Notes: generated by a model from the sequence alone, not told the origin. DNA of 17,349 nucleotides from Planctomycetota bacterium (GCA_947501605.1 CANMWZ010000055.1:1-17349); one strand, 5' to 3'. Counted from the stretch's first letter, positions 1,696 to 17,349 are shown. Numbers and translations are program-made.

Positions 1696-1868
1696 CGCTG
1701 CAGGCGAAAGTTCTCGGCGAGGACGCCGAAGACACGTTGGCTTCGCGCAACAATCTGGGGCTCGCGGCGCAGCGCAGCGGCAAGTTCGCGGAGGCCGAGC
1801 AGATCCTGCGCGACGTGCTGCAGCGGTGCCGCAGGGTCTCCGGCGCGCGACACCCCGAGACCCTGCGT
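1696..1868 (+). pseudogene. Internal fragment of a TPR (TPR_10/TPR_12-like) repeat protein, cut by the element end
   Basis: LQAKVLGEDAEDTLASRNNLGLAAQRSGKFAEAEQILRDVLQRCRRVSGARHPETLR runs directly into GGTAGGAC. No convincing start. Left boundary approximate. Confidence 0.75.
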
Positions 1869-2221
1869 GGTAGGACTTCCGAATGGGCTCCCAGACCATC
1901 CGCGAGCCGCGCGGGATGGTAGTCGTGGCGATTCACTCCCAGAAGTTGCCCGCTCCGCTCGCTCCCGCCGGCCGCAGTCGAGGTGAGGTTCCCCGCCCCG
2001 CCGGGGTGCGAACGCACTGCCGCTGGCCGAGCTGCCGAGTGTGCAGTTCGGATCACTTGGATTCGGCGCAAAGTTCATAGCGCGATCCGCGATCACCAAA
2101 GCAGTCGCGCCTGTGGCGGCGGCCTCGCCGGTGCGACCGCTGGCGGTTCGGCGGGCAGGCCGAGGTGGGGGAGGATCCTGCGGATGCTGTCCGGGTCGTG
2201 GATCGCGGCGAGCAGAGTGCG
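1869..2221 (-). mobile_element. IS91/ISCR-type remnant copy A: oriIS end, 224-nt noncoding segment and last ~42 transposase codons
   Basis: Begins GGTAGGACTTCC. Transposase stop at 2093-2095. Encodes RTLLAAIHDPDSIRRILPHLGLPAEPPAVAPARPPPQARLLW*. Confidence 0.88.
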
Positions 2222-2284
2222 CATGGGCACGTTGGAGGACGAGCTGTTGAAGCTGGTCGCCGACGGTCTCTCCACGCCGGATGA

Positions 2285-3085
2285 CGATCGCGCCGCGCAT
2301 TCATCGCCGCCTGCGCGCTCCTCACCCTGCTGTCGTCGTGTGCATCGCGACCGCCGGCCAAGAAGCCGCAACCACTCAGCGTCGTCTCCTACAACATCCG
2401 CCACGGCGCTGGCATGGACGAACGCGTCGATCTCGCGCGCACGGCCGCGACTCTGCGCGCGCTCGAACCGGACTTGGTCGCACTGCAAGAAGTCGACAAC
2501 GGCGTCGCGCGCAGCGGCGGCATCGATCAAGCGAAGGAGCTGGGCGCCGCACTCGGCATGCACCACGCGTTCGGGTCGTTCATGGACTACCAAGGCGGTC
2601 GCTACGGGATGGCGATCCTGTCGCGACTGCCGATCCGCACGCAGCGCGTGATCCAACTGCCACCCGGCGACGAGCCGCGCATCGCGTTGCTCGTCGAGGT
2701 CGAGACCGAGGACGGCGCTCTCGTGTCGCTGATCTCGGTGCACCTCAACTGGGTCCACGACGACGTGCTGCGCTTCGCGCAAGCGGAGACGCTTTGTCGA
2801 GAACTCGATGCGCTCGCGACGCTGTATCTCGTCGTCGGCGACTTCAACGACGAGCCGGGTTCGCGAACGTTGGCGTTGTTCGAGGCGCGCGCTAGGCAAG
2901 CAGCGAAGCCTGACGGGGCGAGGTTCACGTATCCGTCGCCCGCGCCCGAGAAGGAGATCGACTTCGTCTATGCGGCACCGAAGACGCAGTTGGACGTTGG
3001 CGAAGTTCGCGTCGTCGACGAGCGCATGGGGTCGGACCATCGGCCGGTGCTCGCGGTGCTGGGGTTGCGCCCCGTGGCGCAATAA
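2285..3085 (+). CDS. Endonuclease/exonuclease/phosphatase (EEP) family lipoprotein; native start missing or frameshifted
   Basis: Motifs SYNIRHG, DLVALQEVD, SVHL, GDFN, IDFV and SDHRPV. The lipoprotein-like leader RSRRAFIAACALLTLLSSC lies upstream of the tracked ATG 2414. In-frame TGA at 2282-2284; the ATG at 2281 is out of frame. Confidence 0.85.
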   Translation, partial: RSRRAFIAACALLTLLSSCASRPPAKKPQPLSVVSYNIRHGAGMDERVDLARTAATLRALEPDLVALQEVDNGVARSGGIDQAKELGAALGMHHAFGSFMDYQGGRYGMAILSRLPIRTQRVIQLPPGDEPRIALLVEVETEDGALVSLISVHLNWVHDDVLRFAQAETLCRELDALATLYLVVGDFNDEPGSRTLALFEARARQAAKPDGARFTYPSPAPEKEIDFVYAAPKTQLDVGEVRVVDERMGSDHRPVLAVLGLRPVAQ

Positions 3086-3095
3086 CACCGCCCCC

Positions 3096-3737
3096 CTACT
3101 GCGTCGATACGAACCGATCCAGCGCCCGCCGCGGTTCCGTCTGCTGTCGGCCCGCAACCGCATACAGCACCAGAGGCCCCAGCTCCCGGCGCACCAACTG
3201 CAGCGCGCTCGACGCCGGCAACTGCGGCGCGGGGTCGCGTTCGCGCGAGATCGCGAACACACCCACCGGCCCGTTCGGCGTATCGATCAACGCCGCCACG
3301 CAGCCGCCGGTCGGCAGGCCGCGATAGCACCCGCGCAGCGTCAACTCCGCATTGTCGCCGCCGAGCGACAGTCGCACGGAGAACTGCTGCTCGCACGTCG
3401 CACAGAAGTCGAGGTCTGGATCGCAGCAGGACACCGCCCCGCTCGCTTCGCCGGCGATCGCGTGCTCGTAGGCCGCAGCCCACAACGCGCCGAGTTCTTG
3501 CCCGTCGTGTCCTTCGGGGCCCGACGTCGTGTCGCGCGCGAGGATCCAGACGCCGAGGCTGACCAGCAGTGCGGCCGCCGCGAGCAGACCATGGACCCAC
3601 CATCGCGCAGAAGGTCGCTTCGCGACCGCGCAGGCGAGGTTCGCGAAGGATGCATCGGGCGGCGGCGAGAAGCTGCCGCGCAGCATCGCGTCGAGGCGTT
3701 CGTCGAGCGGATCGGGCGTGTCGTCGTTGGTGTTCAC
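3096..3737 (-). CDS. Putative membrane-anchored anti-sigma factor with Cys-containing external domain
   Basis: Start overlaps the ECF sigma stop. N-terminal LDERLDAMLRGSFSPPP, one TM (WWVHGLLAAAALLVSLGVWIL), then SCC..FCATC..GC..GC. Confidence 0.7.
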   Translation of the reverse strand: MNTNDDTPDPLDERLDAMLRGSFSPPPDASFANLACAVAKRPSARWWVHGLLAAAALLVSLGVWILARDTTSGPEGHDGQELGALWAAAYEHAIAGEASGAVSCCDPDLDFCATCEQQFSVRLSLGGDNAELTLRGCYRGLPTGGCVAALIDTPNGPVGVFAISRERDPAPQLPASSALQLVRRELGPLVLYAVAGRQQTEPRRALDRFVSTQ

Positions 3738-4270
3738 AGGGTCCTCCGCAGTGCTTCTGTCGCGAGCGGGGCGAGGGCCGCGCGCAACGCGACGCGTGCG
3801 CGACGAGCATGACTGGTGGCGGTGTTCTCGTTCACCTCGAGCATTTCAGCGATCTCGGCAAAGCTCAGTTCGCCGACCACGTGCAGCAAGAGCGCCGCAC
3901 GTTGCGGAGCCGGTAGCGACTGCAGAGCCGCAGCGACTTCGTCGGAGAGCCCCATGCGGTCCGCGTCGAACAACCGCAACGTCGGCACCGAGTCGCGAGC
4001 GAACGGTTCGGGCTGGGCTTCGGTCGCTGTCGGCCGCACCTTGCGCCGCCAATTGGCACCGACGTGGCGCACGATCTGCGCGAGGTAGGCACCGAACTGC
4101 GACCCCGCTGAGACCTCGTGCCGCTTCTGCCACGCGACGCGCGCGGCCTCTTGGACGAGGTCCTGCGCATCCCCGCGACCGACCCAAGCAGCAGCGAGCA
4201 GCCACAGCGTTCGCCCATGACGGGCGAACGCGGCGGTGAACTCGTCGGCTCCGATCGGCGCGCTGGACAT
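3734..4270 (-). CDS. ECF (sigma-70 family) RNA polymerase sigma factor, ~178 aa
   Basis: Region 2 (DAQDLVQEAARVAW...FGAYLAQIVRH) and region 4 (ALQSLPAPQRAALLLHVVGELSFAEIAEMLEVNENTATSHARRAR). Start placed at MSSAPIG. Confidence 0.92.
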   Translation of the reverse strand: MSSAPIGADEFTAAFARHGRTLWLLAAAWVGRGDAQDLVQEAARVAWQKRHEVSAGSQFGAYLAQIVRHVGANWRRKVRPTATEAQPEPFARDSVPTLRLFDADRMGLSDEVAAALQSLPAPQRAALLLHVVGELSFAEIAEMLEVNENTATSHARRARVALRAALAPLATEALRRTL

Positions 4271-4292
4271 GCAGGTCGACAACGGTAGCGGC

Positions 4293-4538
4293 TCAGCAGC
4301 CGGACGTACCGCAGCGAACGGTGCAGCAGTCGGTCGCAGGCGCGGGCGCGGCCGGAGCGGTCTCGCAGCAGTCCTGGCAGCAGCCGTCGTCACAGCACGG
4401 CTCGTCGCAGCAGTTGACTTCGACGCAGCACGCGGGCGGGCAGCACGGGCAACAGGCGGGATCGCCGCCTTGGGGCTGACCGTGGGTCGAGGCAAAGAAG
4501 AAGAAGAAGGGCAGGATGGCGTGTAGGAAGAGGTTCAT
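4293..4538 (-). CDS. Small exported Cys-rich peptide (81 aa, 18 Cys), metallothionein-like composition
   Basis: MNLFLHAILPFFFFFASTHG hydrophobic leader, then ACCPCCPPACCVEVNCCDEPCCDDGCCQDCC...DCCTVRCGTSGC. Ends 22 nt before the sigma start. Confidence 0.75.
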   Translation of the reverse strand: MNLFLHAILPFFFFFASTHGQPQGGDPACCPCCPPACCVEVNCCDEPCCDDGCCQDCCETAPAAPAPATDCCTVRCGTSGC

Positions 4539-4733
4539 GGTGTTTTGGGTCCGCGAACGGGACGCCCTCTCATGTCGCGGGGGCGGACCTTCCGTGCAGC
4601 GAGTTCGAAAACTCTGCGGCCGCGTGTCTGAGGTCTTCGATTCTGGGCTGTGCCCCGCGACGGCGAGGGGGCCGGGATCGACAATGCCGCGCTGCCGTAG
4701 CGGCGCTGCCACGGCGTTCTCGGACTGCTCGCG

Positions 4734-7109
4734 ATGAAGAAGTTCCTCTTGCTGCTGTTGCTGCTGCTGGCGGCCACCTTCGTGCTGCGGGACCAGCTCT
4801 GGCCGGGGGTGCATCCAACTGGCGAGCTTGCACCGGCGGCGCGCGAGGCGGACCTCGCGACAGGCAACCTCACGGCGGCGGCGGCGACACCGACGCCGAC
4901 CGGAGCGATCGATCCCACCAGAACGGAGCGGCGCGCCACAGCCGGCTCCTTGCGCGTGCGCGCCCTGGCCCAGGCGAAGGACGGCACCACGGCGCCGCTG
5001 CCCGATCTGCTGGTCCTCGCCTTCGAGGGCGAAGGCAGCCACGAACCCGTCGACGGGTTCGTCCATCGTCTTCGTACCGACGAACGCGGCGAGGCGGTGT
5101 TCGCATCGCTGCAGCCAGGAACCTTCTCGGTGCGTGCGCCTTCGGCGCGCGTCGCCACGCAGCATGCGGTCGTCGCCGACTCGGGCGAGGCGCTCGCCGA
5201 GTTGCGAATCGACTCTGCCTACACGGTGCACGGGATCGTGATCGACGCCAACGGCAGGAGGGTCGAAGGGGCGGACCTGTGGTTCGCGCGCAACATCCTC
5301 CGCGACGCCTACGGCATCGAGGAGCCGAGCGAAGTGTTCGCTCGCCGCGCCGGCCGCAGCGCCCCGGACGGGTCCTTCGCGGTCGCCGTCACCGACCCTC
5401 GTGAACGCCGCATCTCCGCGAGCCACACCGTGCACGGCGAGTCGATGGCGCGCTACGTCCAGTCAGGCCAACGCGAACTGGTACTCGCACTGCAACCCGC
5501 CACGGCGAAGCTGAGCGGCGTCGTACGGGACGCGCGCGAGACCCCCGTCGTCGATGCCGTCGTCGTCGTTCGGATCGGCAACGAGAACGCGCGGCGACTT
5601 CGCGATGGCACGCTGGTCGCTGGCCACCGGCCGTTCGGCGCGCGCACAGACGCCGACGGGCAGTTCGCGTTCGCGGAACTGCCCGCAGGGCGCGCCACGG
5701 CCACCGCGAGTGCCGACCCTCACGGCGCGGTCACGGTCGAACTGGACCTTCGCGCAGGCGAGCCACAGGATGTCGCGCTGAACCTTCCCGAAGGCGTGAT
5801 CGTCCACGGCTTCGTGCGGCGCGCGAACGGGACGCCGCTGCGAGCAACCGTGCGCCTCCTGCCATCGCGCGGCGTCGACGGGTCGCTCAACGAATGCACC
5901 GTTCGCCCCGACGGCAGCTACCTTCTGCGCGCACGATCGCGACATCCGTTCGTCATCGCCGTCGCACTCGGGCACCGCACGCTCGTGGATCGCGAGTTCG
6001 AACGCCCGGAGCCAGGCAGCTTGCGCTGCGACTTCGTCGTCGACGATGCGTTCGCGACGGCCGGCACCGTGACCTCGAGCGACGGTCACCCGCTCGCGGA
6101 GTGGCGCGTGCGCCTGCTGCCCCGCGGCGGCAGCCCGGTCGAGACGCGCACGGACGAGAGCGGGGCGTTCCTGCTGGAGAGTCGCTTCGCCGAACTCGCC
6201 GAGGCTTCGGTGTTCGCTCCTGGCTCGGGGACGCCGGCGCTCGTGCAGGACGGCGTGCGCCCTGGCGAGACGCTCCTTCTGAAGGTCCCGCTCGCGGCGA
6301 TGCCGCGCGGCCGCATCGAGGGCCGCGTGACGGATGCCGCAGGATCACCCGCCGCCGTCACCCTGAGGCTCCGCTGTCCATCGCCGCGCGTGCAGCACGA
6401 AACACAGAGCGGCGCCGACGGCTCGTTCGCGTTCGAAGGCCTCGTCGCCCTGCGATGGACGCTCGAGCATGCACACTTCGGCAACACGACGATCCTGAAG
6501 GACGCGATCGAAATCGCCGACGGCGAAGTTCGCGACCTCGGCACGATTGCCCTGCCGCCCACGGGCCGCCTCGCCATCGAGGTACTGGACGAGTTCGGCC
6601 GACCGTGGTCGGGCAGCGCTGTCGGGTTCTCCTTGCACGACCAACGCGGCGCCGGCGTGGCCGTCGACCACGTGACGATCGACGGTCGACTTGGCGTCGA
6701 AGCCGCGCCGGGCAACTACACGCTGGGCGTGATCGCGACCGATCTCCTCTGCGACCGCGTGCCCGTGACGATCGAAGCAGGCCGCATGGAGAACGCGCGC
6801 TTGTCGCTGCGCGTCGGCCGCACGTTGCGGCTCCACTTCACTTCTGACGCCGAGAACGGCCGGGGCGAAGCGCGACCGCTGCGCGTCGCGATCCGCGATG
6901 CGAACGGCGCATCGGTGCTCGACGAGAGTTTGCCGCGGGCGAGGGCCCTCTCCGGCAACCGCGCGTTCTGGCAGCTCTCGCGCACGTTTCCGTTCGGCCC
7001 GCACCGAATCGAAGCGACCACCGAGGACGGGCTACGGTTCGCGATGGACCTCGACGTCACCGAGTCCTTCGACAGCGATCCGATCGTCGAAGTGCCAATC
7101 GTCCGCTGA
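4734..7109 (+). CDS. Exported protein with repeated carboxypeptidase-regulatory-like (prealbumin-fold) domains, 791 aa
   Basis: Signal/TM MKKFLLLLLLLLAATF. Repeats of the type GxVxDxxGxPV...TDxxGxFxFxxLPxG. Confidence 0.85.
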   Translation: MKKFLLLLLLLLAATFVLRDQLWPGVHPTGELAPAAREADLATGNLTAAAATPTPTGAIDPTRTERRATAGSLRVRALAQAKDGTTAPLPDLLVLAFEGEGSHEPVDGFVHRLRTDERGEAVFASLQPGTFSVRAPSARVATQHAVVADSGEALAELRIDSAYTVHGIVIDANGRRVEGADLWFARNILRDAYGIEEPSEVFARRAGRSAPDGSFAVAVTDPRERRISASHTVHGESMARYVQSGQRELVLALQPATAKLSGVVRDARETPVVDAVVVVRIGNENARRLRDGTLVAGHRPFGARTDADGQFAFAELPAGRATATASADPHGAVTVELDLRAGEPQDVALNLPEGVIVHGFVRRANGTPLRATVRLLPSRGVDGSLNECTVRPDGSYLLRARSRHPFVIAVALGHRTLVDREFERPEPGSLRCDFVVDDAFATAGTVTSSDGHPLAEWRVRLLPRGGSPVETRTDESGAFLLESRFAELAEASVFAPGSGTPALVQDGVRPGETLLLKVPLAAMPRGRIEGRVTDAAGSPAAVTLRLRCPSPRVQHETQSGADGSFAFEGLVALRWTLEHAHFGNTTILKDAIEIADGEVRDLGTIALPPTGRLAIEVLDEFGRPWSGSAVGFSLHDQRGAGVAVDHVTIDGRLGVEAAPGNYTLGVIATDLLCDRVPVTIEAGRMENARLSLRVGRTLRLHFTSDAENGRGEARPLRVAIRDANGASVLDESLPRARALSGNRAFWQLSRTFPFGPHRIEATTEDGLRFAMDLDVTESFDSDPIVEVPIVR

Positions 7110-7119
7110 TCCCTTCCCC

Positions 7120-7332
7120 ATGCGCCGACTCCTCCCACTGCTCTCCCTCCTCGTCACAGCCGCGCTCGCGCAGGCGCCGACGCCACCCCGCGTCGTGCGC
7201 GTGTTCCTGCTCGCGGGCCAATCCAACATGGAAGGCCACGGCGTCGCCGACCTCGACGACGAACGCGACTACAACGGCGGCCGCGGGACGTTGCTGCACT
7301 GGCTCGAGCACGGCGGCAAGGAGGCAGCGTAG
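7120..7332 (+). pseudogene. Sialate O-acetylesterase-like (SASA/SGNH) gene truncated after 70 codons
   Basis: Signal peptide plus VRVFLLAGQSNMEGHG (SGNH block I). The TAG stop (7330-7332) is the TAG of the element end GTAGGAC. Confidence 0.85.
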
Positions 7333-7555
7333 GACTGCCAAAGGGGCTCCCAGACCATCCGCGAGCCGCGCGGGATGGTAGTCGTGGCGATTCACTCCCA
7401 GCAGCAGCCTCCTTCGCTCGCTCCCGGCGCCCGCAGTCGAGGTGAGATTCAGAGCCCAGCCGCCATGCGAACGTACCGCCGCCGGCCGAGCTGCCGAGTC
7501 TGCAGTTCGGAGTTGCTCGGACTCGGCGCCAACTACGTCGCGCGATCCACAATCA
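7328..7555 (-). mobile_element. IS91/ISCR-type remnant copy B: oriIS end plus noncoding segment only
   Basis: CGTAGGACTGCCAAAGGGGCTCCCAGACCATCC... aligns with copies A and C. Similarity stops at the transposase stop codon (7553-7555). Confidence 0.88.
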
Positions 7556-7571
7556 ACGTGCTGGACTCCGA

Positions 7572-7630
7572 CCGCTCCCACCTTCGATCGGCGAATCGCT
7601 TGTGGACGTCCCGGCGTGAGCGGGCTCGCC
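7572..7630 (+). pseudogene. Fragment of a second hicB-hicA junction
   Basis: 42 of 48 nt identical to 1281-1328. Encodes PLPPSIGESLVDVPA* with the overlapping GTG start, then SGL. Confidence 0.8.
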
Positions 7631-7671
7631 GAATGTCGCCACCCATCGCAGCGACGCGCTAATGTGCGAGC

Positions 7672-8862
7672 ATGTCGCTCGCGCACTCGCACTCGCGTTC
7701 GTTCGTCTGCCGGCTTGCCGCCATCGCCGCGCTCGCGCTCGCCGCAACGGCGCAGCAGGACGGTGCACCCGCCACGGACAAGGAACCCCGCGTGGCGTGG
7801 AAGCACGCGCCTTCTGGCTGCAGCTTCGAGGACCTGATCACCGACGGCCGCACGCTGTTCGTGCTCGATCGCCGCGGACGCATCCAGGCGCTCGATCCAG
7901 AGTCCGGCACCGTGAAGTGGGAGAGCAAGGAGAAGCTCGAGTTCGGCCGCGGATTCGGCCTCGCGCTGTCGCCGGCAGCGGACTTCGACGCGCTGCTCGT
8001 CGGCCACGACGAAGGACTCGTCGCCCTGCGGCGCGACAACGGCGAGAAGATCTGGCGAACGGACTTCGCGTCGGGCGTCGCCGGCCCTGCGTGCACCGAG
8101 CGCGCGGTGTTCGTCGGCGGCGCCGACGGCAAAGTGCACGCGCTCGATCTGCGCACGGGCGATGCGCTCTGGTCCTCCGACTGCTTGGACGATCGGCCCG
8201 ACGATCCGCCGGGCTTTGACGGTTCGCAGGCGCGCTTCGCGCCCCACGCGGCGCGTCCGGGCGCTGCGCGTACCGACGGACGCATCGTCGTCGTGCCGAT
8301 CTTCGACCAATGCCGCGTCGTCGCGATCGAATGCGCGAGCGGCAAGCGCGCGTGGGACTTCCGCACGCAGGGCTGGACCTACGGGGGCGTGGCGATCGGT
8401 GATCACAACGCCTTCGTCGTCAGCCAGGACGAGCACCTGTACGCAGTCGACAAGGTGCTCGGCAAGGAAACGTGGCGCGTGAAGACCACCGCGCGCAACG
8501 AGGCCCCGGCCACGGCAGCCGGCCGCTTCGCCTACGTCGGCTCGTGCGACGGCAACCTGCGCGCGGTCGACGAAGTCGTCGGCCAAGTGGTCTGGAAGTT
8601 CGCGATCGAACCCGACTCGGAAGGCAACACGCCAATCTATGGCGCGCCGGTCGTGCACGGCGATTCGATCGTGTTGGCGGCGATGCCGGGCGTCGTCTAC
8701 GCCGTCGACAGAATGAAGGGCACGTTGCGATGGAAGCTGCGGCCGTCCACGGACTCCGAACTCAACGGCGACCTCGTGGCGATCGGTGCGCGACTGTTCG
8801 CGACGACGCGCATGGACGGCGAGAAGGGGGAGAGTGGCGTGTTCGCGATCGATCCGCCGTGA
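7672..8862 (+). CDS. PQQ-binding-like beta-propeller repeat protein (BamB-like), exported
   Basis: Signal-like LAAIAALALAATAQ. Repeated A(L/V)DxxxGxxxW motifs (ALDPESGTVKW, ALDLRTGDALW, AVDKVLGKETW, AVDRMKGTLRW). Confidence 0.88.
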   Translation: MSLAHSHSRSFVCRLAAIAALALAATAQQDGAPATDKEPRVAWKHAPSGCSFEDLITDGRTLFVLDRRGRIQALDPESGTVKWESKEKLEFGRGFGLALSPAADFDALLVGHDEGLVALRRDNGEKIWRTDFASGVAGPACTERAVFVGGADGKVHALDLRTGDALWSSDCLDDRPDDPPGFDGSQARFAPHAARPGAARTDGRIVVVPIFDQCRVVAIECASGKRAWDFRTQGWTYGGVAIGDHNAFVVSQDEHLYAVDKVLGKETWRVKTTARNEAPATAAGRFAYVGSCDGNLRAVDEVVGQVVWKFAIEPDSEGNTPIYGAPVVHGDSIVLAAMPGVVYAVDRMKGTLRWKLRPSTDSELNGDLVAIGARLFATTRMDGEKGESGVFAIDPP

Positions 8863-9015
8863 GATCCTCGCCAGACCACGCGTCGTGATTGGCGCGCATC
8901 GGCGCCTCGTTCGCCCAGCAGCGCGGCCGCTGCCATGGCGCGCACCCAGTCAGCGAGCGTGGCCCGGAGCCCTCTGCGCTTGCGCTACGCGACCACGGTC
9001 GCAGGCTCGTGCCGA

Positions 9016-9104
9016 TTGACAAGCATCCCGAAGTGTGCGTTAGTGGAACCCACAGGACTTATCCATCCCTGTCAAACCCCGATCCCCTCACTGGATCGAA
9101 GGAG
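9016..9104 (+). promoter_or_regulatory. Possible -35 box (TTGACA 9016-9021) and RBS (AAGGAG 9099-9104)
   Basis: Consensus TTGACA in an AT-richer intergenic patch, but a poor -10 match. AAGGAG lies 6 nt before ATG 9111. Confidence 0.4.
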
Positions 9105-9110
9105 ACTCTC

Positions 9111-10301
9111 ATGTTCCATGCACTCACCGCCTGCATTGTGGCAGGCGCGGCCATTGTCTGTAGCTCAGGCGTGGCCAATGCCCAGTTGCTCGGGCACTCC
9201 CCCAAATCCCAACACAACTTCCCCGCCTTCTACGTCGACTCGGCCGGCAACAGTGTCGCGCACTGCATCGACTGGACCGACCCGATGTGCGGTCACCTGC
9301 CCTTCGAGGACCCGGCGTACGGCCAGGTGCTCGACGTGGCCTCGGGCGTCTTCTGGCAAGAGTCGTTCTACTGGCTCTGCCTCGCCGAAGCGGACGTCCC
9401 TGGTGGCCGCCTGATCATCGTGTTCGCCATCGAAGGCGTGTTCGGCAACGCAGACGAAGCGGTCATCGACGGCGACCAGACGGTGTTCAGTCGCATCCGA
9501 TTCCGGATGGGCACGACGGAGCCCGGCACCTACACGATCCTCCATCCGTTCGGCGAGAACACGTTCACGGACGTCGGCGTCGGCGGACGTGCGATCAACT
9601 ACACCGAAGACTGCCTCCACACGCTGAATGCCGATGGCGTCATCGTCCCGTCGTGCGGCGAGGGCGTTGGCAACTGGTTCGCGAGCGGGCTCGATCCGGG
9701 CACTGCGCGGATCGACCGGTTCCTCTACTGGGATCCGAACGTGTTCCCGCTGGCGCCTGCGGGCTACTACGGCAACCCGGACATCCCGCACCGCATCGCT
9801 GGCGCGTCGAACGGCCGCAATTCGGTCATCGTGCAGGGGCCCAACGTCGGCGGGCCTGGCGTCAACCAGATCGAGATCACCGAGTTCACCATCATGGGCA
9901 AGCACGGACCTGCCCCGACGCTGACGTCGTCGCCGCGCATGATCGACACCGGCACCGGTGGCGTGCAGACGCTGCAACTCGACGGCGGTCCGGCGCGCGC
10001 CGGCGACTTCTACTTCCTCGCCGCGAGCCTCCTGAACACCGCACCCGGGATCGATCTGCCCAATGGGCTGCACGTGCCGTTGGCGCCCGAGGGCATCTTC
10101 GTGTTCGGGCTGCAGGCCGAACCCGCTCCGTTCGCGATGGGCTATGTCGGCCTGCTCGACGGGAACGGGCGCGCGACCGCGCAGCTGTCGATTCCGAGCT
10201 ATCCGGAGATGGCCGGGCTGAACCTGTATCACGTGTTCCTGTCGGGCCCGCCGGGTTCGTTCGAGCACGTGAGCAACATCGCGACGGTGTCCCTGCAGTA
10301 G
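9111..10301 (+). CDS. Secreted hypothetical protein (396 aa)
   Basis: RBS and signal peptide ending VANA-Q. N-domain FPAFYVDS..HC..ESFYW..GDQTVFSRIR..GTYTILHPFG. C-terminal domain QTLQLDGG..AG..YFL..GLLDGNGRATAQL resembles tails of planctomycete exported proteins (recalled, unverified). Confidence 0.8.
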   Translation: MFHALTACIVAGAAIVCSSGVANAQLLGHSPKSQHNFPAFYVDSAGNSVAHCIDWTDPMCGHLPFEDPAYGQVLDVASGVFWQESFYWLCLAEADVPGGRLIIVFAIEGVFGNADEAVIDGDQTVFSRIRFRMGTTEPGTYTILHPFGENTFTDVGVGGRAINYTEDCLHTLNADGVIVPSCGEGVGNWFASGLDPGTARIDRFLYWDPNVFPLAPAGYYGNPDIPHRIAGASNGRNSVIVQGPNVGGPGVNQIEITEFTIMGKHGPAPTLTSSPRMIDTGTGGVQTLQLDGGPARAGDFYFLAASLLNTAPGIDLPNGLHVPLAPEGIFVFGLQAEPAPFAMGYVGLLDGNGRATAQLSIPSYPEMAGLNLYHVFLSGPPGSFEHVSNIATVSLQ

Positions 10302-10445
10302 CACGCTGCCACGGCGGTGGAACGTCGCCCGTGCGGTCGAGTGCCGCCGGGCGACGAGGTCGGCGCGCGCGCGACGCATGCCATGTTCGACGACGAGGAC
10401 CTCCGTGGTTGCAGCCCTGCTCGCGTGCAGCGACGCTGAAGGCAG

Positions 10446-11373
10446 GGTAGGACTTCCAAAGGGGCTCCCAGCCCATCCATGAGCCGCGCAGGATGGTAGC
10501 CGTGGCGACCTGCTCCCAGCAGCAGCCTCCATCGCTCGCTCGCGGCGACCGCAGTCGATGTGAGATTCCCCGCCCAGCCGCCATGCGAACGGACCGCCGC
10601 CGGCCGAGCTGCCGAGTCTGCAGTTCGGAGTTGCTCGGACTCGGCGCCAACTACGTCGCGTGATCCACAATCACCAAGGCAGTCGCGCCTGCGGCGGCGG
10701 CCTCGCCGGTGCGACCGCTGGCGGTTCGGTGGGGAGGCCGAGGTGGTGGAGGATCCTGCGAATGCTGTTCTGGTCGTGGATGGCGGCGAGCAGTGTGCGG
10801 CGACCGCGGCAGGTGGGGCAGGTCAGCACATCCATGAGATAGACGCGGCGAAGGAGCTCGGCCCAGGAGTGGCGTTGGCGAGGGCTGTGGTTCTTCCTCG
10901 GGGCGTGGGGGACAGACGGCACGCGGCGTCGGCGCAGCGGGTCGTTGTCGAAGGGTTGGTCCTGCAGAGTGCGGCCGTGGGGTGAACTCGACGACTGCGA
11001 GCGGTGGCGTTCGCGTCGGCCATCGTGGTCGCAGCCGCCGGCACCATCTGCGCCATCATCATTGTCAGGCAGCAATGGCGGCGGCACGACGCGGTCGCGC
11101 ATCCCAGCGGCTGGCGCGAGCACGCCGTGATACGTGAGCATCATGCGTCGGGGCCGCGGCACCAGCGCGCAGAGGCGTTCGAGGAAGGTGAGCGGATCGA
11201 GGACGACGTGCGTGGAGCCGTCGCGATACCGCTTCTTCAACCGATAGCTGACGCGACCATCGGGGAGCAGCGACAGTCGCTCCTCGACGATCGGCGGACG
11301 CGCGGCGTAGCGGCACAGCTTCTCGAGGCGCTCGCGACAGCCAGCGGGAATGCGTACGGCGGCGTGCAGCGAG
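10446..11373 (-). mobile_element. IS91/ISCR-type remnant copy C: oriIS end, 225-nt noncoding segment and C-terminal part of the transposase
   Basis: Minus-strand end CCCCTTTGGAAGTCCTACC resembles the ISCR oriIS pattern TTTGAA..TCCTA. Longest copy. Confidence 0.92.
10671..11373 (-). pseudogene. 5'-truncated IS91/ISCR-family HUH transposase (Y2_Tnp-like)
   Basis: SLHAAVRI..RERLEKLCRYAARPPI..RLSLLPDGRVSYRLKKRYRDGSTHVVLDPLTFLERLCALVPRPR..LTYHGVLAP; WAELLRRVY..DVLTCPTCRG..IRRILHHLGLP. It has the ISCR-like RYxxRP tyrosine motif. The N-terminal Zn-binding and HUH parts are absent. Confidence 0.92.
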
Positions 11374-11397
11374 TCGTGCTCGGAGTGGGGAGGTGAG

Positions 11398-11616
11398 ATG
11401 AGCAGCGGCGAGATCCCCGTCGTGAACGTCCCGGTGACGGTGAAGCAACTGGCGGAGATCCTCTCGGTCCGTGTGCCTGCGTTGCTGGCCTTGCTCACGT
11501 TCCGGCTGAAGCGAAAGAAGCTGAACGTCCACGCGGAACTCGGCGCCGAGGACGTGAAGGACATCGTCTGCGAGCTAGGGATTCGCGTCCTCCTCGTCGT
11601 GCCGAACGGTGACTAG
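11398..11616 (+). CDS. Stand-alone translation initiation factor IF-2 N-terminal-domain-like protein (72 aa)
   Basis: GGAGGTG RBS. VPVTVKQLAEILSVRVPALLALL...LNVHAELGAEDVKDIVCELGIRV resembles IF2_N. Confidence 0.7.
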   Translation: MSSGEIPVVNVPVTVKQLAEILSVRVPALLALLTFRLKRKKLNVHAELGAEDVKDIVCELGIRVLLVVPNGD

Positions 11617-11647
11617 GACGCGGACGACTGCCCCGCGCCCGCGAACT

Positions 11648-13711
11648 TCACCGCTTCGGCAGCTTCACCTCGATCTCCGCCATCCCCTGCGCCGGCACAT
11701 CGACGTTGACGATCGCCGTCTGGTGGCCTTCGGCCGCGAAGATGCAGCGGTGGCGGCCGGGCACGAGCCCGCGAAACAGCGTCGGCTCGTAGATCGTGAG
11801 ATCCAGATCGCTCATGTACATCTGCACGGGCTTCGACTCGTCGTCAGCGCAGCGCACGTTCACCTTCAACTGCCCGTTGGGCATCGTGAAGTTCCACGGC
11901 CCTTGTCCCTGAACCAGAAGGCGCGCGGGGACGGTGTACACGTTCTGGCCGTCGACGACCTCGGGCTGAGTCTCGTTCGGCGTCACGTGCAACACGTCCC
12001 CGTCCTGCAGGTCGAGCATGGGGACGTGACCGTCACTCAAGAGCGGCACTTGGCTGAAGGACTGTCCCAGGCGCTCTATCGCCACGAATCCACGCCGCAG
12101 GAGTGCGACGTGCATGTACTCGATCGGTTCGCCGTTCGCATCGCGGATGCAGTACTGCGGTTTCGCCGGCAGCGTGATCGCGCCCACGTCGACGAACGCG
12201 TCGTCGCCTCGCGGCGGCAGCAGCACCGGCACGATGCGCGTCGTGTGCTCGCGGTCCTGGCTGATGACCGCAAGCAGAGCGAGCCCTTCTCGTTCGGTCT
12301 GGAGCTGGATCGAGCCCGCCGTGTCGGCTGCTTCTTCGACGTCGTCGAGGCGCGGAGTCATGGCCTCGTGCGGGGTCAATAGCGCGAGCTTCGCTTCGAG
12401 CGGTTGGCCCGCTTCGTCGACGACGCGACCTTCGATGCGCGTCGGCCGATACCACGGAAGGCGCACGACGCCCTCGGCCAGTGCCTTTGCGCGATCGGTG
12501 GGGAAGGTGCGGGTCTTGCCAAGACCGTCCACGACGAAGGCGAACGGCTCGTCGGGCAGCGGCAGGGGTTCGCCGCGCGCGAGGAGTTCACTGACGTCGG
12601 CGCGACGCGTTCGCGTCACGAGGTCGACCGTGCAGTTCTCGTCTGCGTGGACCAGACGGACGGGCACGGTGGGCCAACTCCGATCAGGGAACGGCGGCAG
12701 CTCGTTGTCGGCGTCCTCGCGACTGCGCACGCCAACCGGCAGGTTGACGAGTTCGGTTCCGTTCACGGGTTCCGCGGGTGCGGGCGGGACCTTCAGCCGC
12801 ACGGGCGTCTCTGCGTCGAGGTCGACCAGGAGTTCGCGTTCGCCTACGTGGACCCAGAGTTCGGTCGGTCGATCCTCGATGCCGCACAGCAGGAACGCGC
12901 CGTCGTTGCCCGTTCGCGTCCACGGCCCGCGATGCACGTCCTTGTAGCCGACGTGCGCGTTGGCGATCGGCTTGCCGTCGGCGTCGACCACGGTGCCGCG
13001 CAGCGAGATCGCGAACTTCTCTTCGATCCGCGCTGGCGGCTCGCCGGGGAACCAGTCGCACTCCTCGTAGAAGAGACCGAGGTCTTGGTGCTCGAGGTAG
13101 ACGTCGCGGATGCCCTGGAGAGTGTCGATGCCGGGAAGCATGCACTGGCCGTTCGCGTCGGTGCGCGCGGAGACGAGGTCCGGCGTGTGGCCGCAACCGC
13201 TGCAGAAGCCGACGTGACAGTCGGCGACGGGCTGCCCGAAGGCGTTGAAGACCTGCAGCGGCATGTCGATGGCCGGCGCGAGTACGGTCACGTCGTCGAG
13301 CGCGTCCATCTCCATGCGTTGACCGAAGCCGGGTGCGCGCACCATGAGCCAGTGCCACGTGCGGCCCTTCTGCAGGTTCGGGTCCAGCGGGATGCGGAAG
13401 AACCCGTCCGCGTCGGGGGCGAGACACTGCTGGAACGAGAACTCGCCGCGCACCGGGTGGTCGCTCTCCGCGATCAGGAACAGCTCGGCCTGCGGCAGGG
13501 CCGCGCCGGTCATCCCGTCCACCGCGCGGAAGCAAAGGGTCTTCTTCCCGTCGACCTCCTCGTAGCTGTCGGGCGGGTAGACCAGCGACGAGAACTGCAC
13601 CGAAGGGGCCTGCGCCGAGGCATTGGCGACGAGGGCGAGGGCGAGAGAGACAGCGAGGGCCCGCGTCGTGTCACGGGCAGGGGACAGAGAGTCCATGAGG
13701 GCGCGCGCCAT
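11648..13711 (-). CDS. Exported protein with carboxypeptidase-regulatory-like domains (687 aa)
   Basis: Signal-like ALAVSLALALVANASA-Q. Repeats LRGTVVDADGKPIANA and IEGRVVDEAGQPL. Contains FCSGCGHTPD. Confidence 0.82.
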   Translation of the reverse strand: MARALMDSLSPARDTTRALAVSLALALVANASAQAPSVQFSSLVYPPDSYEEVDGKKTLCFRAVDGMTGAALPQAELFLIAESDHPVRGEFSFQQCLAPDADGFFRIPLDPNLQKGRTWHWLMVRAPGFGQRMEMDALDDVTVLAPAIDMPLQVFNAFGQPVADCHVGFCSGCGHTPDLVSARTDANGQCMLPGIDTLQGIRDVYLEHQDLGLFYEECDWFPGEPPARIEEKFAISLRGTVVDADGKPIANAHVGYKDVHRGPWTRTGNDGAFLLCGIEDRPTELWVHVGERELLVDLDAETPVRLKVPPAPAEPVNGTELVNLPVGVRSREDADNELPPFPDRSWPTVPVRLVHADENCTVDLVTRTRRADVSELLARGEPLPLPDEPFAFVVDGLGKTRTFPTDRAKALAEGVVRLPWYRPTRIEGRVVDEAGQPLEAKLALLTPHEAMTPRLDDVEEAADTAGSIQLQTEREGLALLAVISQDREHTTRIVPVLLPPRGDDAFVDVGAITLPAKPQYCIRDANGEPIEYMHVALLRRGFVAIERLGQSFSQVPLLSDGHVPMLDLQDGDVLHVTPNETQPEVVDGQNVYTVPARLLVQGQGPWNFTMPNGQLKVNVRCADDESKPVQMYMSDLDLTIYEPTLFRGLVPGRHRCIFAAEGHQTAIVNVDVPAQGMAEIEVKLPKR

Positions 13712-13812
13712 GGCAATCCACGTTCCGCGGGCACGGCGTCATGCGCCACCCCGTTCTCGCGAAGGGCGCCACGATGCGGGGCGCTGTCCTCGCTGCGCCT
13801 TCCCTCGACGGC

Positions 13813-13848
13813 GCGAGGGTTTCGGAAGTGGCCTTCCGAAACCCTCGC
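13813..13848. terminator. Perfect 16-bp inverted repeat, possible terminator or stabilising hairpin
   Basis: GCGAGGGTTTCGGAAG-tggc-CTTCCGAAACCCTCGC, about 60 nt downstream of the Lys-rich peptide stop. No U-tract. Confidence 0.5.
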
Positions 13849-13910
13849 ATCGACATCCTCCTGCATGCAGGGGATGGGTCCAGCGAACGGGATGACGATC
13901 GCTGCTGCGA

Positions 13911-14015
13911 TCAGCCCTTCGTCGCCTTCTTAGCGGCCTTCACGGCGCGCTTTTCCTTCAGCGACTTCTCGGACTTCTTCTTCGTTTCCTTCTTACCTTG
14001 TTGGCTCTTAGCCAT
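13911..14015 (-). CDS. Small Lys-rich basic peptide (34 aa)
   Basis: GGAGG RBS 5 nt upstream of the ATG. MAKSQQGKKETKKKSEKSLKEKRAVKAAKKATKG*. Confidence 0.75.
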   Translation of the reverse strand: MAKSQQGKKETKKKSEKSLKEKRAVKAAKKATKG

Positions 14016-14314
14016 GGTTGCCTCCGTTGGAACTGTGGACTGAGTGTTCGTGCGCGGCTCCGTGCCGCGAACGGTCGCGTTGCGATCGATGCAGAGTGCA
14101 CTCCGAGCGAAGGGGATTCCAGTGGGCGGAATGTGGCGTGCTTCGGCGCGCGAGCGAGCGCCCCATCGACCCTTCGGCGAGGAAGCCGCGGCGGTAGCGC
14201 AGCAAGCTGCCGCCGGATGGTGCGGCCGCTGACGAGTCCGCGGACGACGGAGCATCCCGGCTCCACCACCCCGGCCACCCCGCCGATGTCGCCCGGCCAC
14301 GCACGCGAGGCGCG

Positions 14315-14500
14315 TCAGCGTTGGCGGACGAGCCGGATCGACCGCACGTTGACGACCGCCTCGCCGGGCTTCGACTTCGCGCGCAGCGTTGCGCGATGGG
14401 CGCCGAACGGCAACTCGACGCGACCCAACTCGACCGTGTGGTAGCTCTGCCAACCGCCCGTCGCCGGCACCGCGAACTCGAGCGTGCGCTGCCGCCCTCG
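14315..14500 (-). pseudogene. C-terminal fragment of a carbohydrate-binding (CBM6/35-like) domain
   Basis: TLEFAVPATGGWQSYHTVELGRVELPFGAHRATLRAKSKPGEAVVNVRSIRL with the TGGW motif. No coherent N-terminal part upstream. Confidence 0.65.
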
Positions 14501-14693
14501 CCCTCGAAAGCGGATCGGCCGCCATGAAGGTGAGCTACGCGTTCTCTTGGGTGTCTCGCAGCAGTCCATGGTAGATGCGAGGACAGCGCCCTGGAGAGCC
14601 TGCTGCAGTCGATCGCTGGCGGCATCGGCTGGTACCTCGTGATGGCGCTCACCGAGCAGCGCAGGCTCGCCACCTTCGGCGGCAATGAGGCAG

Positions 14694-15055
14694 GGTAGGA
14701 CTTCCAAAGGGTCTCCCGGACCATCCGCAAGCCGCGCCGGATGGTAGCCGTGGGGCTCCGTCCCGCGAAGTGGCCTCCGTGGATCGCGTCCGCGACTTCT
14801 ATTCGAGGTGAGATTCCCCACGCGGCCGCCCAATGAACACAGCGCCGCCGGCCGAGCTGCCGAGTCTGCAGATCGGGTGGTTTGGATTGGGCGCCAACTA
14901 CATCGCGCGATCCACAATCACCAAGGCAGTCGCGCCTGCGGCGGCGGCCTCGCCGGTGCGACCGCTGGCGGTTCGGCGGGAAGGCCGAGGTGGTGGAGGA
15001 TCCTGCGAATGCTGTCCTGGTCGTGGATGGCGGCGAGCAGAGTGCGGCGACCGCG
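14694..15055 (-). mobile_element. IS91/ISCR-type remnant copy D: oriIS end, 224-nt noncoding segment and last ~45 transposase codons
   Basis: Begins GGTAGGACTTCCAAAGGG. Stop at 14918-14920. Encodes RGRRTLLAAIHDQDSIRRILHHLGLPAEPPAVAPARPPPQARLPW*. Confidence 0.9.
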
Positions 15056-15600
15056 ATCGCCCAGTAGCCGACGAGGTTGATCCAGAACGGCGAACGCACG
15101 TCGCCGGCGCCGCGCAGCAAGCCGATGGCGGTGACCTGCAGCCCGTCGCCGATCTGGAACACGCCGGCGATCGGCAGCAATGCGGCGCCCCATGCGACGG
15201 CGCGCGGATCGCTCGCGAGGACGCCGGCGAGGAACTCCGGCGCCAGCAAGAACAGCAGCATGAACGCGCTCATCACGAGCGCGCCGCAGCACAGCGCGGC
15301 GAGCGCGGTGCGGCGCGCTGCTTGTGGTTCGCCGCGGCCGATCGCCCAACCGACGCGAACGGAGCCGGCGATGCCGACGCCGAGCGGCACCATGAAGCTC
15401 AGTGACGCGAGCTGGATCGCGATCTGGTGGCCGCACAGCCGCAGCCCTTCGGTCTCGCCCGATTGCGCGTCGAGGTCGCCGATCAACAGTGCGGTCGCCG
15501 CGAACACGCCCATCTCCATCGCATACTGGCCGCCGATCGGCAGGCCGAGTCGCAGCAAGCGCGCAACCGGCGCACGTCTTGGAGTGGTGGCCCGACTCGT
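15056..15600 (-). pseudogene. Internal fragment of a MATE (NorM-like) efflux transporter
   Basis: LLRLGLPIGGQYAMEMGVF..HQIAIQLASLSFMVPLGVGIAGSVRVG..FQIGDGLQV..GLLRGAGD..GYWAI. The N-terminal half and last TMs are missing. Right boundary approximate. Confidence 0.88.
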
Positions 15601-15674
15601 CTCCCAGTTGCGTCGCACAGTCTGGTAGCTTGGTGCAAGAACTGGTCTTGTTCTTGGGCCCGGCTGATTAATTT

Positions 15675-16529
15675 TCAGCGGCGGCGCTGCAGGAAAAACG
15701 ATCGAACGGCAACTTCGAACTCGGCGCGCAGGTAGTTCAAGTCGTCTCGGGCCGCGAAGAACTCGGGGCTGTTGGTGCGATCGAGCCAGAGCACGCGGCG
15801 GTGCGTAAGGTCGCGCCCTGGAACCGTCGAGATGTTGAAATCTGGGCCTAGATTAGAGCGCGCTTCTTCCATCAGGCTCTCGTTGAGTCCGTCTGGCCAC
15901 TTGCCATTGGGGACCTCCCGAAAGCGCCCGCTGCGAACTGCTTCAGCAATACCCATTTGTTCTTCCGCCCACCTGTCCCGGGACCGATCGCGCAGGCGTT
16001 GGGAATACTCCGCGATGAGAGATTTCAGATAGCTGAGTTGATCATCTTTCAGCGGTCTTTCGAGTGGGTTTATATTGCGATCCGCTGCTAGTTCATTTGC
16101 AGTCGGGAGCGGCACGGCAAACGGATCCGGAAGGGGTTGGCCATTAGCGTCCAGGATCGGTTCTGCTAAATTGCGACTCAGCGACTGGTGGACAAAGTCG
16201 AAGCACTCGTCGCCACTCGGGCTTTGTATCGACGCGATCCAATGACGAGCGCGTTCGACGGTGGACGGGATGTGGATCTCGCTTCTCTGGCCAATAGAGG
16301 GGGCAGTGGTAGGTGCGGGTGCCGATTCGGGCTGACTCCGTGACTGCGATGTGGTTTCCTGTGATGCAGTTATGGCAGGTAGTTCGGCTTCGTTGGTGGG
16401 ATTTGATATCGCTGAATGCGGTGCAGCATCGTTGCGCCAAACTACGAGCACGAAAGCGACGATGCCCAGCGACGCAGCCAGGATGAAAAACCTTCGATGC
16501 TCACCGAAAGTATAGCTTGGGTATGACAT
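15675..16529 (-). CDS. Hypothetical membrane-anchored protein (284 aa)
   Basis: N-terminal TM FFILAASLGIVAFVLVVW, Pro/Ser/Thr linker, helical body. Visibly more A/T-rich codons than neighbours. Confidence 0.7.
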   Translation of the reverse strand: MSYPSYTFGEHRRFFILAASLGIVAFVLVVWRNDAAPHSAISNPTNEAELPAITASQETTSQSRSQPESAPAPTTAPSIGQRSEIHIPSTVERARHWIASIQSPSGDECFDFVHQSLSRNLAEPILDANGQPLPDPFAVPLPTANELAADRNINPLERPLKDDQLSYLKSLIAEYSQRLRDRSRDRWAEEQMGIAEAVRSGRFREVPNGKWPDGLNESLMEEARSNLGPDFNISTVPGRDLTHRRVLWLDRTNSPEFFAARDDLNYLRAEFEVAVRSFFLQRRR

Positions 16530-16535
16530 CTAGGC

Positions 16536-17048
16536 TCACTCGCCTCCAGCCGGATCTGGCACATCGACGCATGCTGCGCAAGCTCCGCCGGGGCTGCCAA
16601 TGAGCTCATTCCCAGGCTGTCGACGCAAGCGTAGGAAGTCCTTTCGGCCGCAGGGTACGGCCCAGTTGGAAATGGTGGACGGCGTGCCGGCAGCCATTGG
16701 TGTGGCGGTTGCACAGGCTGTGCCCGAGCCCAAGGAGCGTCCGTTCTGGTCCACCGGTTCTGTGCAGAACTCGGCTGTGTATGACGGCGAGTAGGGGCAG
16801 CCCGGTTTGGATTGAACCTCGATTGTCATGGTGAACAGGCAAACCGAGTCTGGCAGGCATAGCACCGGGTTCAGGCTGCGACGGCTGCAGTCGCCGTTCA
16901 GGTTTGTTCCGAAGCTGACCACAACGCGTGTACACGCGTCGTCGACAGGCGCACCTAGGTCGGGGTAGTTCTTGCAGTTGCTGCAAGTTTGTCCAGACAG
17001 TGGCAGGGATGTGGCGAACATGATGCCCGTTACCCAAATCTTCTTCAT
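16536..17048 (-). CDS. Secreted Cys-rich hypothetical protein (170 aa)
   Basis: MKKIWVTGIMFATSLPLSGQ leader and 12 Cys. Ends 6 nt before the next ATG. Confidence 0.7.
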   Translation of the reverse strand: MKKIWVTGIMFATSLPLSGQTCSNCKNYPDLGAPVDDACTRVVVSFGTNLNGDCSRRSLNPVLCLPDSVCLFTMTIEVQSKPGCPYSPSYTAEFCTEPVDQNGRSLGSGTACATATPMAAGTPSTISNWAVPCGRKDFLRLRRQPGNELIGSPGGACAACVDVPDPAGGE

Positions 17049-17205
17049 GCAAGCGAGGGTAGCAGGGAACGTGGGCAGCGTCAAGTGATTGACTCGCAAA
17101 CACGGTGCGAACCGCCTACATCGGTGGCAGTCGGAGACTGCTTACGAGGGCGACTTGGGCTTCCGCCGTGAGGTCTCTGAAGCAGACCGAGTCTGGCGTG
17201 GGCAG

Positions 17206-17349
17206 GGTAGGACTTCCAAAGGGTCTCCCGGACCATCCGCAAGCCGCGCCGGATGGTAGCCGTGGGGCTCCGTCCCGCGAAGTGGCCTCAGTGGATCGCG
17301 TCCGCGACTTCTATTTGAGGTGAGATTCCCCACGCAGTCGCCCAATGAA
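17206..17349 (-). mobile_element. IS91/ISCR-type copy E, running off the window
   Basis: Nearly identical to 14694-14837 (copy D subtype). Confidence 0.88.

Follow-up and report, generated by a model that had tools for sequence, protein, structure and literature searches.

How do several ends of one transposon come to stand in a single orientation between genes that do not belong together? The question is raised by a 17,349-nucleotide stretch of DNA from a Planctomycetota bacterium (GCA_947501605.1, CANMWZ010000055.1:1-17349), referred to here as the window, which carries five oriIS ends of an ISCR-like member of the rolling-circle IS91 family, a group of insertion sequences (IS). The window is the whole of contig C55, one of 89 contigs in a 4.65-Mb assembly that is 91% complete (genome G000), and DNA nearly identical to it is present in lake and freshwater-sediment metagenomes. 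We favor, with a probability of roughly 0.55, the reading that the window is a piece of a chromosomal array that grew at a resident ISCR-like element through ori joins made by the transposase together with host recombination. At odds slightly better than even, we also regard such an array as an integrase-free platform for collecting genes, whose units are not precise, reusable cassettes.

A first-pass annotation, made from the sequence alone, had described five direct, co-oriented copies that share one end and are cut at different points at the other, with lengths of 353, 228, 928, 362 and >144 nt. This description holds. Start-to-start spacing is 5459, 3118, 4248 and 2512 nt, the lengths are correct when counted from the annotated starts (1869, 7328, 10446, 14694 and 17206), and copies 1-5 all have the oriIS end while the side of the transposase gene (tnp) is variably cut. 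The real ori ends lie 4 nt farther out, at 1865, 7324, 10442, 14690 and 17202, because GCGG at a sister copy on contig C78 is missing from the empty site of the congener G003. A sixth, inverted tnp scrap of 70 nt, at 893-967, had been missed. The element-derived features are as follows.

1865-2221, minus strand (tnp sense; ori end at 1865): copy 1, which keeps the oriIS end, the 3' untranslated region and the final ~43 codons of tnp
7324-7555, minus strand: copy 2, oriIS end plus 3' untranslated region, truncated at the stop codon of tnp
10442-11373, minus strand: copy 3, oriIS end and C-terminal ~234 tnp codons (10671-11373)
14690-15055, minus strand: copy 4, oriIS end and last ~46 tnp codons, with a shared CGCG at the join to a MATE-transporter scrap
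17202-17349, minus strand: copy 5, oriIS end with 97% identity to copy 4, interrupted by the end of the contig
893-967, plus strand: inverted internal tnp scrap

Copies 1-4 align pairwise with 195-418 bits, as against a best off-diagonal score of 42.8 in 20 shuffled windows. Across the first 147 nt, pairwise identity of the copies is 0.70-0.97, and neighboring copies are the most alike (0.85, 0.88 and 0.97). Apart from the IS end, the window has no repeat family with several copies, and a scan against Rfam returned 0 matches. The C-terminal part of a Y2_Tnp transposase is encoded by copy 3 on the minus strand (PF04986, E 6e-16), and the shared end therefore lies downstream of tnp. This copy retains the catalytic-tyrosine motif CRYAARP and is without the Zn finger and the HUH motif.

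The domain match, the end motif and family-model scores together bear out the proposal that an ISCR-like element of the IS91 family supplied the repeats as its oriIS ends. A full-length transposase is on record: P0001 (531 aa) is 93% identical over 97% of the window fragment and has both PF14319 and PF04986, the Zn_Tnp_IS91 and Y2_Tnp domains of the broad IS91 family. H180/H182 and Y320/R323 are invariant across 40 homologues, and no helicase domain match was found in P0001. In G000 the element ends in TTTGGAAGTCCTACCCTGC on the tnp strand, about 217 nt past the end of tnp. A TCCTA motif lies about 195 nt after tnp in several relatives, its core also follows the transposases of distant relatives, and oriIS stands downstream of tnp as a conserved end. 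A CCATCC...GGATGG stem is predicted at oriIS in most of 10 copies, with nil covariation and a double change in 2 of 20 pairs. No inverted pair of ends was found among the 25 longest listed repeats, and there is no short duplication at the junctions; a long diverged flank duplicate on contig C52, described below, is not a transposition target-site duplication. The upstream regions of seven near-full copies, compared by eye, had no common end that would mark a terIS, and two copies in G018 share about 40 nt.

The transposase is 38-39% identical to plasmid proteins annotated as ISCR1 or ISVsa3. The best NCBIfam model for P0001 is ISCR_clade_Ia (E 1e-98, versus E 9e-22 for IS91), with 331 bits against the cut-off of 925, which places the protein outside the ISCR1-like clade Ia; it also scores 77.5 bits against the cut-off of 125 for the transpos_IS91 equivalog, a cut-off that a different element, on contig C10, passes with 415.8. 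Its LEKLCRY motif aligns with an ISVsa3-family protein, and a single-tyrosine motif is what sets the ISCR group apart. Judged by model scores and motif, the transposase is nearer to ISCR than to IS91. IS91 has a tetranucleotide target (PMC13181058). No host tetranucleotide of the CTTG/GTTC type accompanies the ends described here, where the conserved GCRG is encoded by the element; in the relative G218 there is only a pyrimidine bias. GCAG or GCGG as a host target was rejected after inspection of the C78 empty site and of nested insertions in G218.

The earlier claim of an array without an integrase is supported for this assembly by a search with TIGR02249, in which no integron integrase exceeded the cut-off in G000 (91% complete) or in G218. 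The full-length Y2 transposase on C10 was considered as a trans-acting enzyme and rejected, as it scores about 20 bits to the window family profile and belongs to a separate, integrase-linked IS91 type. At G000:C10:404-2596 a tyrosine-recombinase gene is followed by this full IS91-equivalog transposase, near a tRNA-like sequence at the contig end. In a different genome, an integron integrase over the cut-off (G020:C67:204691-205623) lies about 2 kb from a remnant of the transposase family studied here.

We compared the window with contigs from four public runs of four studies. Single contigs of run X2 match 2174-7358, 7526-10601, 11325-14718 and 15027-17230 with 0 differences at a depth of 12-14, and run X3 covers nearly identical spans, with block 1 split into two overlapping pieces; the two runs come from different studies, one of which may be the source of the assembly. 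Each block runs from the tnp side of one copy to the ori of the next, so that the head-to-tail layout is independent of how the assembler crossed the repeats. The tnp-cargo-ori architecture is real. As for block order, none of the listed run contigs bridges a whole repeat between two blocks. The absence of a complete transposase, as first claimed, is correct for the window and the assembly but not beyond them: X2 depth is 92-146 in the tnp region versus 12-19 in cargo, and four X3 contigs extend into tnp past 11373. This suggests that longer element copies are present in the population, with other organisms possibly adding to the depth. Joints in run contigs, being short-sided and within repeats, were not used as evidence of rearrangement, and low cover in runs X11 and X15 was not taken for block loss.

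Mapping in this genome and its relatives supports the proposed clustering and co-orientation of copies and rules against even, random dispersal. A DNA profile gave 19 hits on 7 contigs of G000. The nine contigs with any trace amount to 4.1% of the assembly, and 0 of 30 contigs >50 kb carry one, except for the different IS91-type element on C10; contig breaks at these repeats make the clustering in G000 look stronger than it is. The main copies on C52 and C66 are co-oriented, and C78 and degenerate hits on C45 are mixed. The transposase profile matches 147 of 251 genomes of the order, G000 included. We examined 19 relatives exhaustively and set G218 aside for the following counts, which cover the other 18. 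A neighbor within 20 kb is present for 120 of 172 elements, versus 13.7 expected if placement were uniform, and adjacent pairs are co-oriented in 68 of 81 cases within 20 kb versus 22 of 43 beyond. Without pairs closer than 3.5 kb the former count is 53 of 62, and for pairs 20-300 kb apart on one contig it is 12 of 24. Of 41 distant loci, mostly from outside the planctomycetes, 7 have an extra ori within 10 kb, with 8 of 9 facing the same way. Scans for the exact ori pattern returned 0 loci in metagenome and genome contigs, a collection from which near relatives may be missing. No tRNA gene was found at the array borders in 18 of 19 loci scanned, and a fixed chromosomal anchor beside a carboxyltransferase gene (G000, G018) was dropped because other genomes show other neighbors.

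The arrays can be followed at full length in G218, which is a single 7.7-Mb contig. The seven regions examined there contain 105 pieces, and truncation is asymmetric, the ori being kept 76 times and the 5' end 13 times; 69 of the 76 ori pieces share the orientation of their array. There are six arrays, 15-106 kb long, in which the median distance between oris is 5.2 kb, and up to about 16 co-oriented ori ends occur in one array, with cargo that is different in every case. Sharp ori ends stop at TCCTATCCGT in 75 cases, followed by C (42), T (22), A (7) or G (4), and no non-IS outer flank is common to any of the 75. The nearest relative of an ori lies in the same array in 51 of 63 cases, versus 11.2 when shuffled. 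Additionally, a 5'-intact copy stands at the head of 6 of 6 arrays (P 1.4e-5); a general rule of a full-length head copy was unsupported outside G218. An age gradient along arrays was looked for and not found.

Two further observations concern this chromosome. A 3495-bp element (G218:C1:248310-251804 and three other arrays), 100% identical and always at the same tnp position, encodes a large serine recombinase-like protein by our reading of the sequence and may target this transposase gene; the segment was rejected as a moved cassette, being an unrelated serine-recombinase element inside tnp. At G218:C1:244083-245323 and 279517-280757, lipoprotein and membrane-protein genes are duplicated together with a full transposase copy, a gene pair that we take to resemble rhombotarget/rhombosortase.

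The two flanks of a copy do not behave as the halves of an interrupted sequence. In the window they never belong together (TPR/pilT, SASA/hicB, unknown open reading frame (ORF)/MATE). Junction genes, which had been described as often clipped, are indeed so at ori 1 (TPR) and ori 2 (SASA esterase), and clipped scraps adjoin the inner ends of copy 1 (pilT), copy 2 (hicB) and copy 4 (MATE) as well. Across G218 copies the reading frame continues in 8 of 73 cases, versus 6.1 +/- 1.7 when shuffled and 45% in unbroken DNA as a positive control, and congener matches adjoin just one side of copies. Window junctions and frame test agree with the earlier view that these are not simple insertions.

At the inner junctions, for which 57 truncation points were scored in G218, no ter or target motif was found (CCGT 6 versus 4.1 expected); a C-run excess is present without correction for multiple testing. 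Positions of breakage come up repeatedly beside different flanks (33 pairs within 5 nt versus 16.2 jittered, p 0.002), which fits copying that stops at preferred sites. Furthermore, truncated copies in G020, G018 and G007 are 98.6-100% identical to a full neighbor, which fits truncation at or soon after birth. IS801 yields ori-end miniatures in vivo (PMC3189936).

Gain of DNA together with elements, which the first-pass annotation had proposed to look for among strains, is documented at one empty site. On C52 a 6.1-kb insert of three decayed copies plus cargo starts exactly at an ori; the genes flanking it are adjacent in 3 of 4 congeners, and the contig of the fourth does not include the site. 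A diverged duplicate of the left flank lies past the 5' end of tnp. This structure is as expected from flank read-through followed by homologous re-integration of a circle, and a model of circle plus homologous recombination has been proposed for ISCR1 (PMC13023784). The cargo between the copies includes two genes (G000:C52:4686-5689) that, as we read them, resemble a nucleotidyltransferase toxin-antitoxin pair. In G218, an array termed F takes up 27 kb at a place that in G142 is filled by about 2 kb of other genes; this locus is variable anyway, because congeners carry other accessory genes there without a large array.

Some cargo is foreign to the host. The MATE scrap in the window has 97% identity to congener G002, as against 78% to the gene of the host itself. 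A stretch of about 5 kb on C78, lying outside an ori, matches G003 at 90-95% identity; it ends in a core gene that is cut off at the ori, and the host's own orthologue of this gene is on C26 (75%). Foreign cargo is thus found on the outer side of ori as well, which is not predicted by a purely inward rolling-circle unit. A separate observation is that a gene beside a degenerate ori in two congeners (G003:C238:6248-7139 and G001:C440:833-1729) is 95% identical to C15:70568-71460 of G000, which has no element copy nearby; we read this as a recent exchange between members of the genus. Upstream cargo is common to both members of three pairs of full-length or near-full copies in G218 and of one such pair in G021. 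In G155 one pair of 5'-truncated copies, 26.6 kb apart, is cut at an identical junction and has at least 4.5 kb of upstream cargo in common. In the G218 arrays that we examined, no truncated copy recurs with its own non-IS inner cargo. We conclude that carriage of upstream DNA is real, and that stable cassettes mobilised in trans account for a minority of cases at best.

In the reading that we prefer, the HUH transposase would nick oriIS and fuse this end exactly to new DNA with little target preference; the sequence signature of this step is observed, and its chemistry is modeled on IS91. The other end would usually go without a terIS finish, with the rolling-circle copy stopping inside tnp; alternatively, incoming DNA may be anchored by homologous recombination in the tnp-ori segment. 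Host microhomology repair would then join the loose end. Aborted copying and the recombination-anchored route predict the same product. Each event would leave an ori with a 3' stretch of tnp that varies in extent, is akin to the local element and has the same orientation. At four loci the junction DNA includes pieces from other genomes of the genus, and later events overwrote cargo and left doubly clipped scraps. Copies would sometimes take upstream DNA along, which is seen as duplications and whose route we infer. Since arrays in relatives reach about 100 kb, the element probably helps these bacteria to collect outside DNA. More tentatively, the array may be a sedentary capture platform, at which an intact ISCR-like head gene copies its own ori end and splices foreign fragments directly downstream. 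If so, the six arrays of 15-106 kb on one chromosome would represent a second, integrase-free counterpart of chromosomal super-integrons, and sedentary platforms of this kind would be the natural source of clinical ISCR gene capture.

Several points weigh against growth at a resident element. No event was observed, and no circle junction was seen in assembled contigs. The 18 relatives were picked mainly for few contigs and many hits, with hits merged by eye; G141 is without co-orientation (5 of 10), and head polarity outside G218 is found in 9 of 19 clusters versus 7.6 expected. The frame test is blind for intergenic flanks, and coding sequence reaches the edge in only 26 of 75 outer and 24 of 66 inner cases. 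The island of array F extends from 3.5 kb before the first tnp to about 6 kb beyond the last ori. Microhomology was readable at one junction only, where a close donor existed, and Bardaji et al. deem most genomic IS801 fragments to be rearrangement products (PMC3189936). Finally, G218 has dnaA at the contig start and a GC skew that flips sign near the middle, and 15 of 16 clusters run in the direction of the replication fork, so that strand bias sets the direction of arrays in G218, or explains part of the orientation there. A strand bias in the opposite sense is reported for the IS91 family (PMC3971601). Strand bias leaves the loss of co-orientation beyond 20 kb in other genomes unexplained.

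It is unlikely, in our estimate, that each unit is instead a stable cassette of ori, truncated tnp and inner cargo, copied in trans from ori to ori, whose circle re-inserts at another ori. Such a cassette would account for the head-to-tail architecture, for the truncated G155 pair with its shared junction and cargo, and for six direct ori-into-tnp junctions found by eye in G218. Activity in trans and circles are documented for IS91/IS801 (PMC13181058, PMC3189936), and an 11-kb circle of IS91 and cargo is known from an environmental bacterium, Sphingobium (PMC5737581). However, truncated copies in G218 share no inner cargo, their only identical flank being the 3.5-kb serine-recombinase element, and the G155 pair could be a duplication made by recombination. 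The first-pass annotation had proposed cassettes mobilised in trans. For these the one G155 pair speaks; the lack of recurrence in G218 and of ter or target motifs at inner junctions, the make-up of the window blocks as mosaics of doubly clipped scraps, and foreign cargo outside the ori speak against.

The arrays might also be passive, built up by strand-biased local hops into accessory islands and eroded by deletion, with cargo that came by other routes and was merely clipped, a possibility that we again judge improbable. The strand bias reported for the family (PMC3971601) and observed in G218 would serve such a process, as would the variable locus of array F, the IS256-like, ISL3-like and serine-recombinase elements that arrays also gather, and the copies on C52, which retain their 5' ends and are internally deleted. 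Yet decay should strike both ends, and the ori outnumbers the 5' end by 76 to 13. Truncated copies almost identical to full neighbors, co-orientation that is gone at 20-300 kb on the same contig, an insert on C52 that starts exactly at an ori and a frame continuity that leaves simple insertion unsupported are all at variance with it.

That a short-read assembler linked unrelated loci through a dispersed repeat is very improbable: copies do sit on small contigs that break at the repeat and the listed contigs leave block order unbridged, but each block is one tnp-to-next-ori contig without differences in X2 and nearly so in X3, and the same arrays lie within 0.1-8 Mb contigs of relatives, including a single-contig chromosome.

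The cargo of the window, outside ori 1 and in the blocks that follow copies 1-4, is listed below; the pilT label is a reading of the protein with no family scan behind it.

177-881, plus strand: outside ori 1, ORF weakly matching DUF4288 (below cut-off)
1116-1552, plus strand: outside ori 1, hicB-hicA toxin-antitoxin pair
1566-1864, plus strand: TPR-repeat gene fragment, clipped at ori 1
2222-2288, plus strand: pilT-like scrap from the C-terminus, clipped on either side, 87% identical to a complete gene on C18
2303-3085, plus strand: block 1, endonuclease/exonuclease/phosphatase gene
3096-4270, minus strand: block 1, ECF-type sigma factor and downstream gene with a weak anti-sigma match
4734-7109, plus strand: block 1, CarboxypepD_reg-repeat protein, 791 aa
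7120-7323, plus strand: N-terminus of a SASA-family esterase, cut off at ori 2; complete paralogue on C19 (82%)
7572-7626, plus strand: hicB 3' scrap and hicA start, 85% to 1281-1335, adjoining the inner end of copy 2
7672-8862, plus strand: block 2, PQQ-like beta-propeller protein
9111-10301, plus strand: block 2, putative secreted protein, no Pfam/NCBIfam match
11395-11616, plus strand: block 3, 73-aa ORF, no family match
11648-13711, minus strand: block 3, CarboxypepD_reg-repeat protein, 687 aa
14315-14530, minus strand: block 3, CBM6-like fragment (below cut-off)
15056-15573, minus strand: MATE-transporter scrap, clipped at both ends
15675-17048, minus strand: block 4, two low-GC (56-62%) ORFs, no family matches

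The putative secreted protein at 9111-10301 has a homologue in G018 (80%), beside which no element copy was detected. A scan of the window found no sigma-70-like promoter, a result with which outward promoters remain compatible. Upstream of the ECF sigma gene, a small ORF on the minus strand (4293-4538) has a hydrophobic N-terminus and many Cys-Cys pairs. At 16536-17048, also on the minus strand, a low-GC, Cys-rich and probably secreted protein has a 69% DNA paralogue on C56 (6050-6477), and the stretch holding it is missing at the corresponding place in the congener G003. Within 632-1640, a second, diverged version of the 632-1159 stretch and the hicBA pair is present in run contigs from the same populations.

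Sedentary chromosomal integrons are long arrays of accessory genes, with co-oriented repeats that group by array and the enzyme gene at the head. The arrays described here resemble them in co-oriented repeat punctuation, in array-specific repeat groups and, in G218, in an intact enzyme gene at the head. They differ in that the repeat is a transposon end, the blocks are about 5 kb, clipped, and hold several genes in both orientations, and an integron integrase is lacking over the cut-off in G000 and G218. Homology-facilitated illegitimate recombination, with one homologous and one microhomology junction, and Helitrons, with gene-fragment capture and a programmed junction, offer further likenesses: a homologous or programmed junction paired with microhomology, and the capture of gene fragments. 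To our knowledge, neither gives ordered arrays anchored by IS ends.

The openly accessible full-text literature yielded no account of many truncated IS91/ISCR ends arrayed on a chromosome between different cargoes, although supplements could hold larger arrays. In 2018 there was stated to be no experimental evidence of ISCR transposition (PMC6218425), and in 2020 transfer of an ISCR2 unit was reported (PMC7722449). Gene pick-up by ISCR is still largely a model, and clinical examples offer two or three junctions each. G218 provides 75 exact ori junctions, 57 truncation points that could be scored and transposases that are intact, and donors and empty sites are available from congeners; which activity makes which junction can therefore be tested by sequence and at the bench. 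If the process is driven by the element, it would be a route of accessory-gene gain across an uncultured-looking order of Planctomycetota, in which the transposase family is so widely distributed (147/251 genomes).

Among rolling-circle elements, IS91, IS801 and IS1294 share with the present element an ori-first polarity, 5'-truncated ori pieces of similar size and occasional upstream carriage (PMC3189936, PMC13181058); miniature ori-end fragments of IS801 measure 229, 360 and 679 nt (PMC3189936). Unlike these elements, ours has no conserved host tetranucleotide beside the ori or truncation points, and whereas IS801 miniatures are simple insertions, the copies here have non-contiguous flanks and pile up. 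ISCR systems are closer. The oriIS of ISCR1 is GTGGTTTATACTTCCTATACCC, with TCCTA (PMC13023784), and our element has a matching motif around TCCTA at a similar distance after tnp. ISCR1 occurs in complex class 1 integrons (PMC6218425, PMC13023784), with a variable region on its ori side (PMC6218425), and in tandem repeats (PMC13023784), and dISCR2-tet(X)-dISCR2...ISCR2 composites are described in Acinetobacter (PMC7722449). As in the ISCR composites, truncated copies and cargo form direct arrays, and a circle plus recombination fits C52; no terIS was recognised in our copies. Unlike the composites, of which versions with two or three units occur on resistance plasmids, the arrays reported here are chromosomal and come from environmental Planctomycetota, as judged by the names of homologues. 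The window is without resistance cargo or a class 1 integron, and instead of two or three mixed units or single-unit tandems there are up to about 16 ori ends in an array and several arrays on a chromosome. Taken together, these comparisons identify a real variant of ISCR-type gene capture that extends across the lineage and stands out for its scale and its array-specific ori lineages, with a driving step that is putative.

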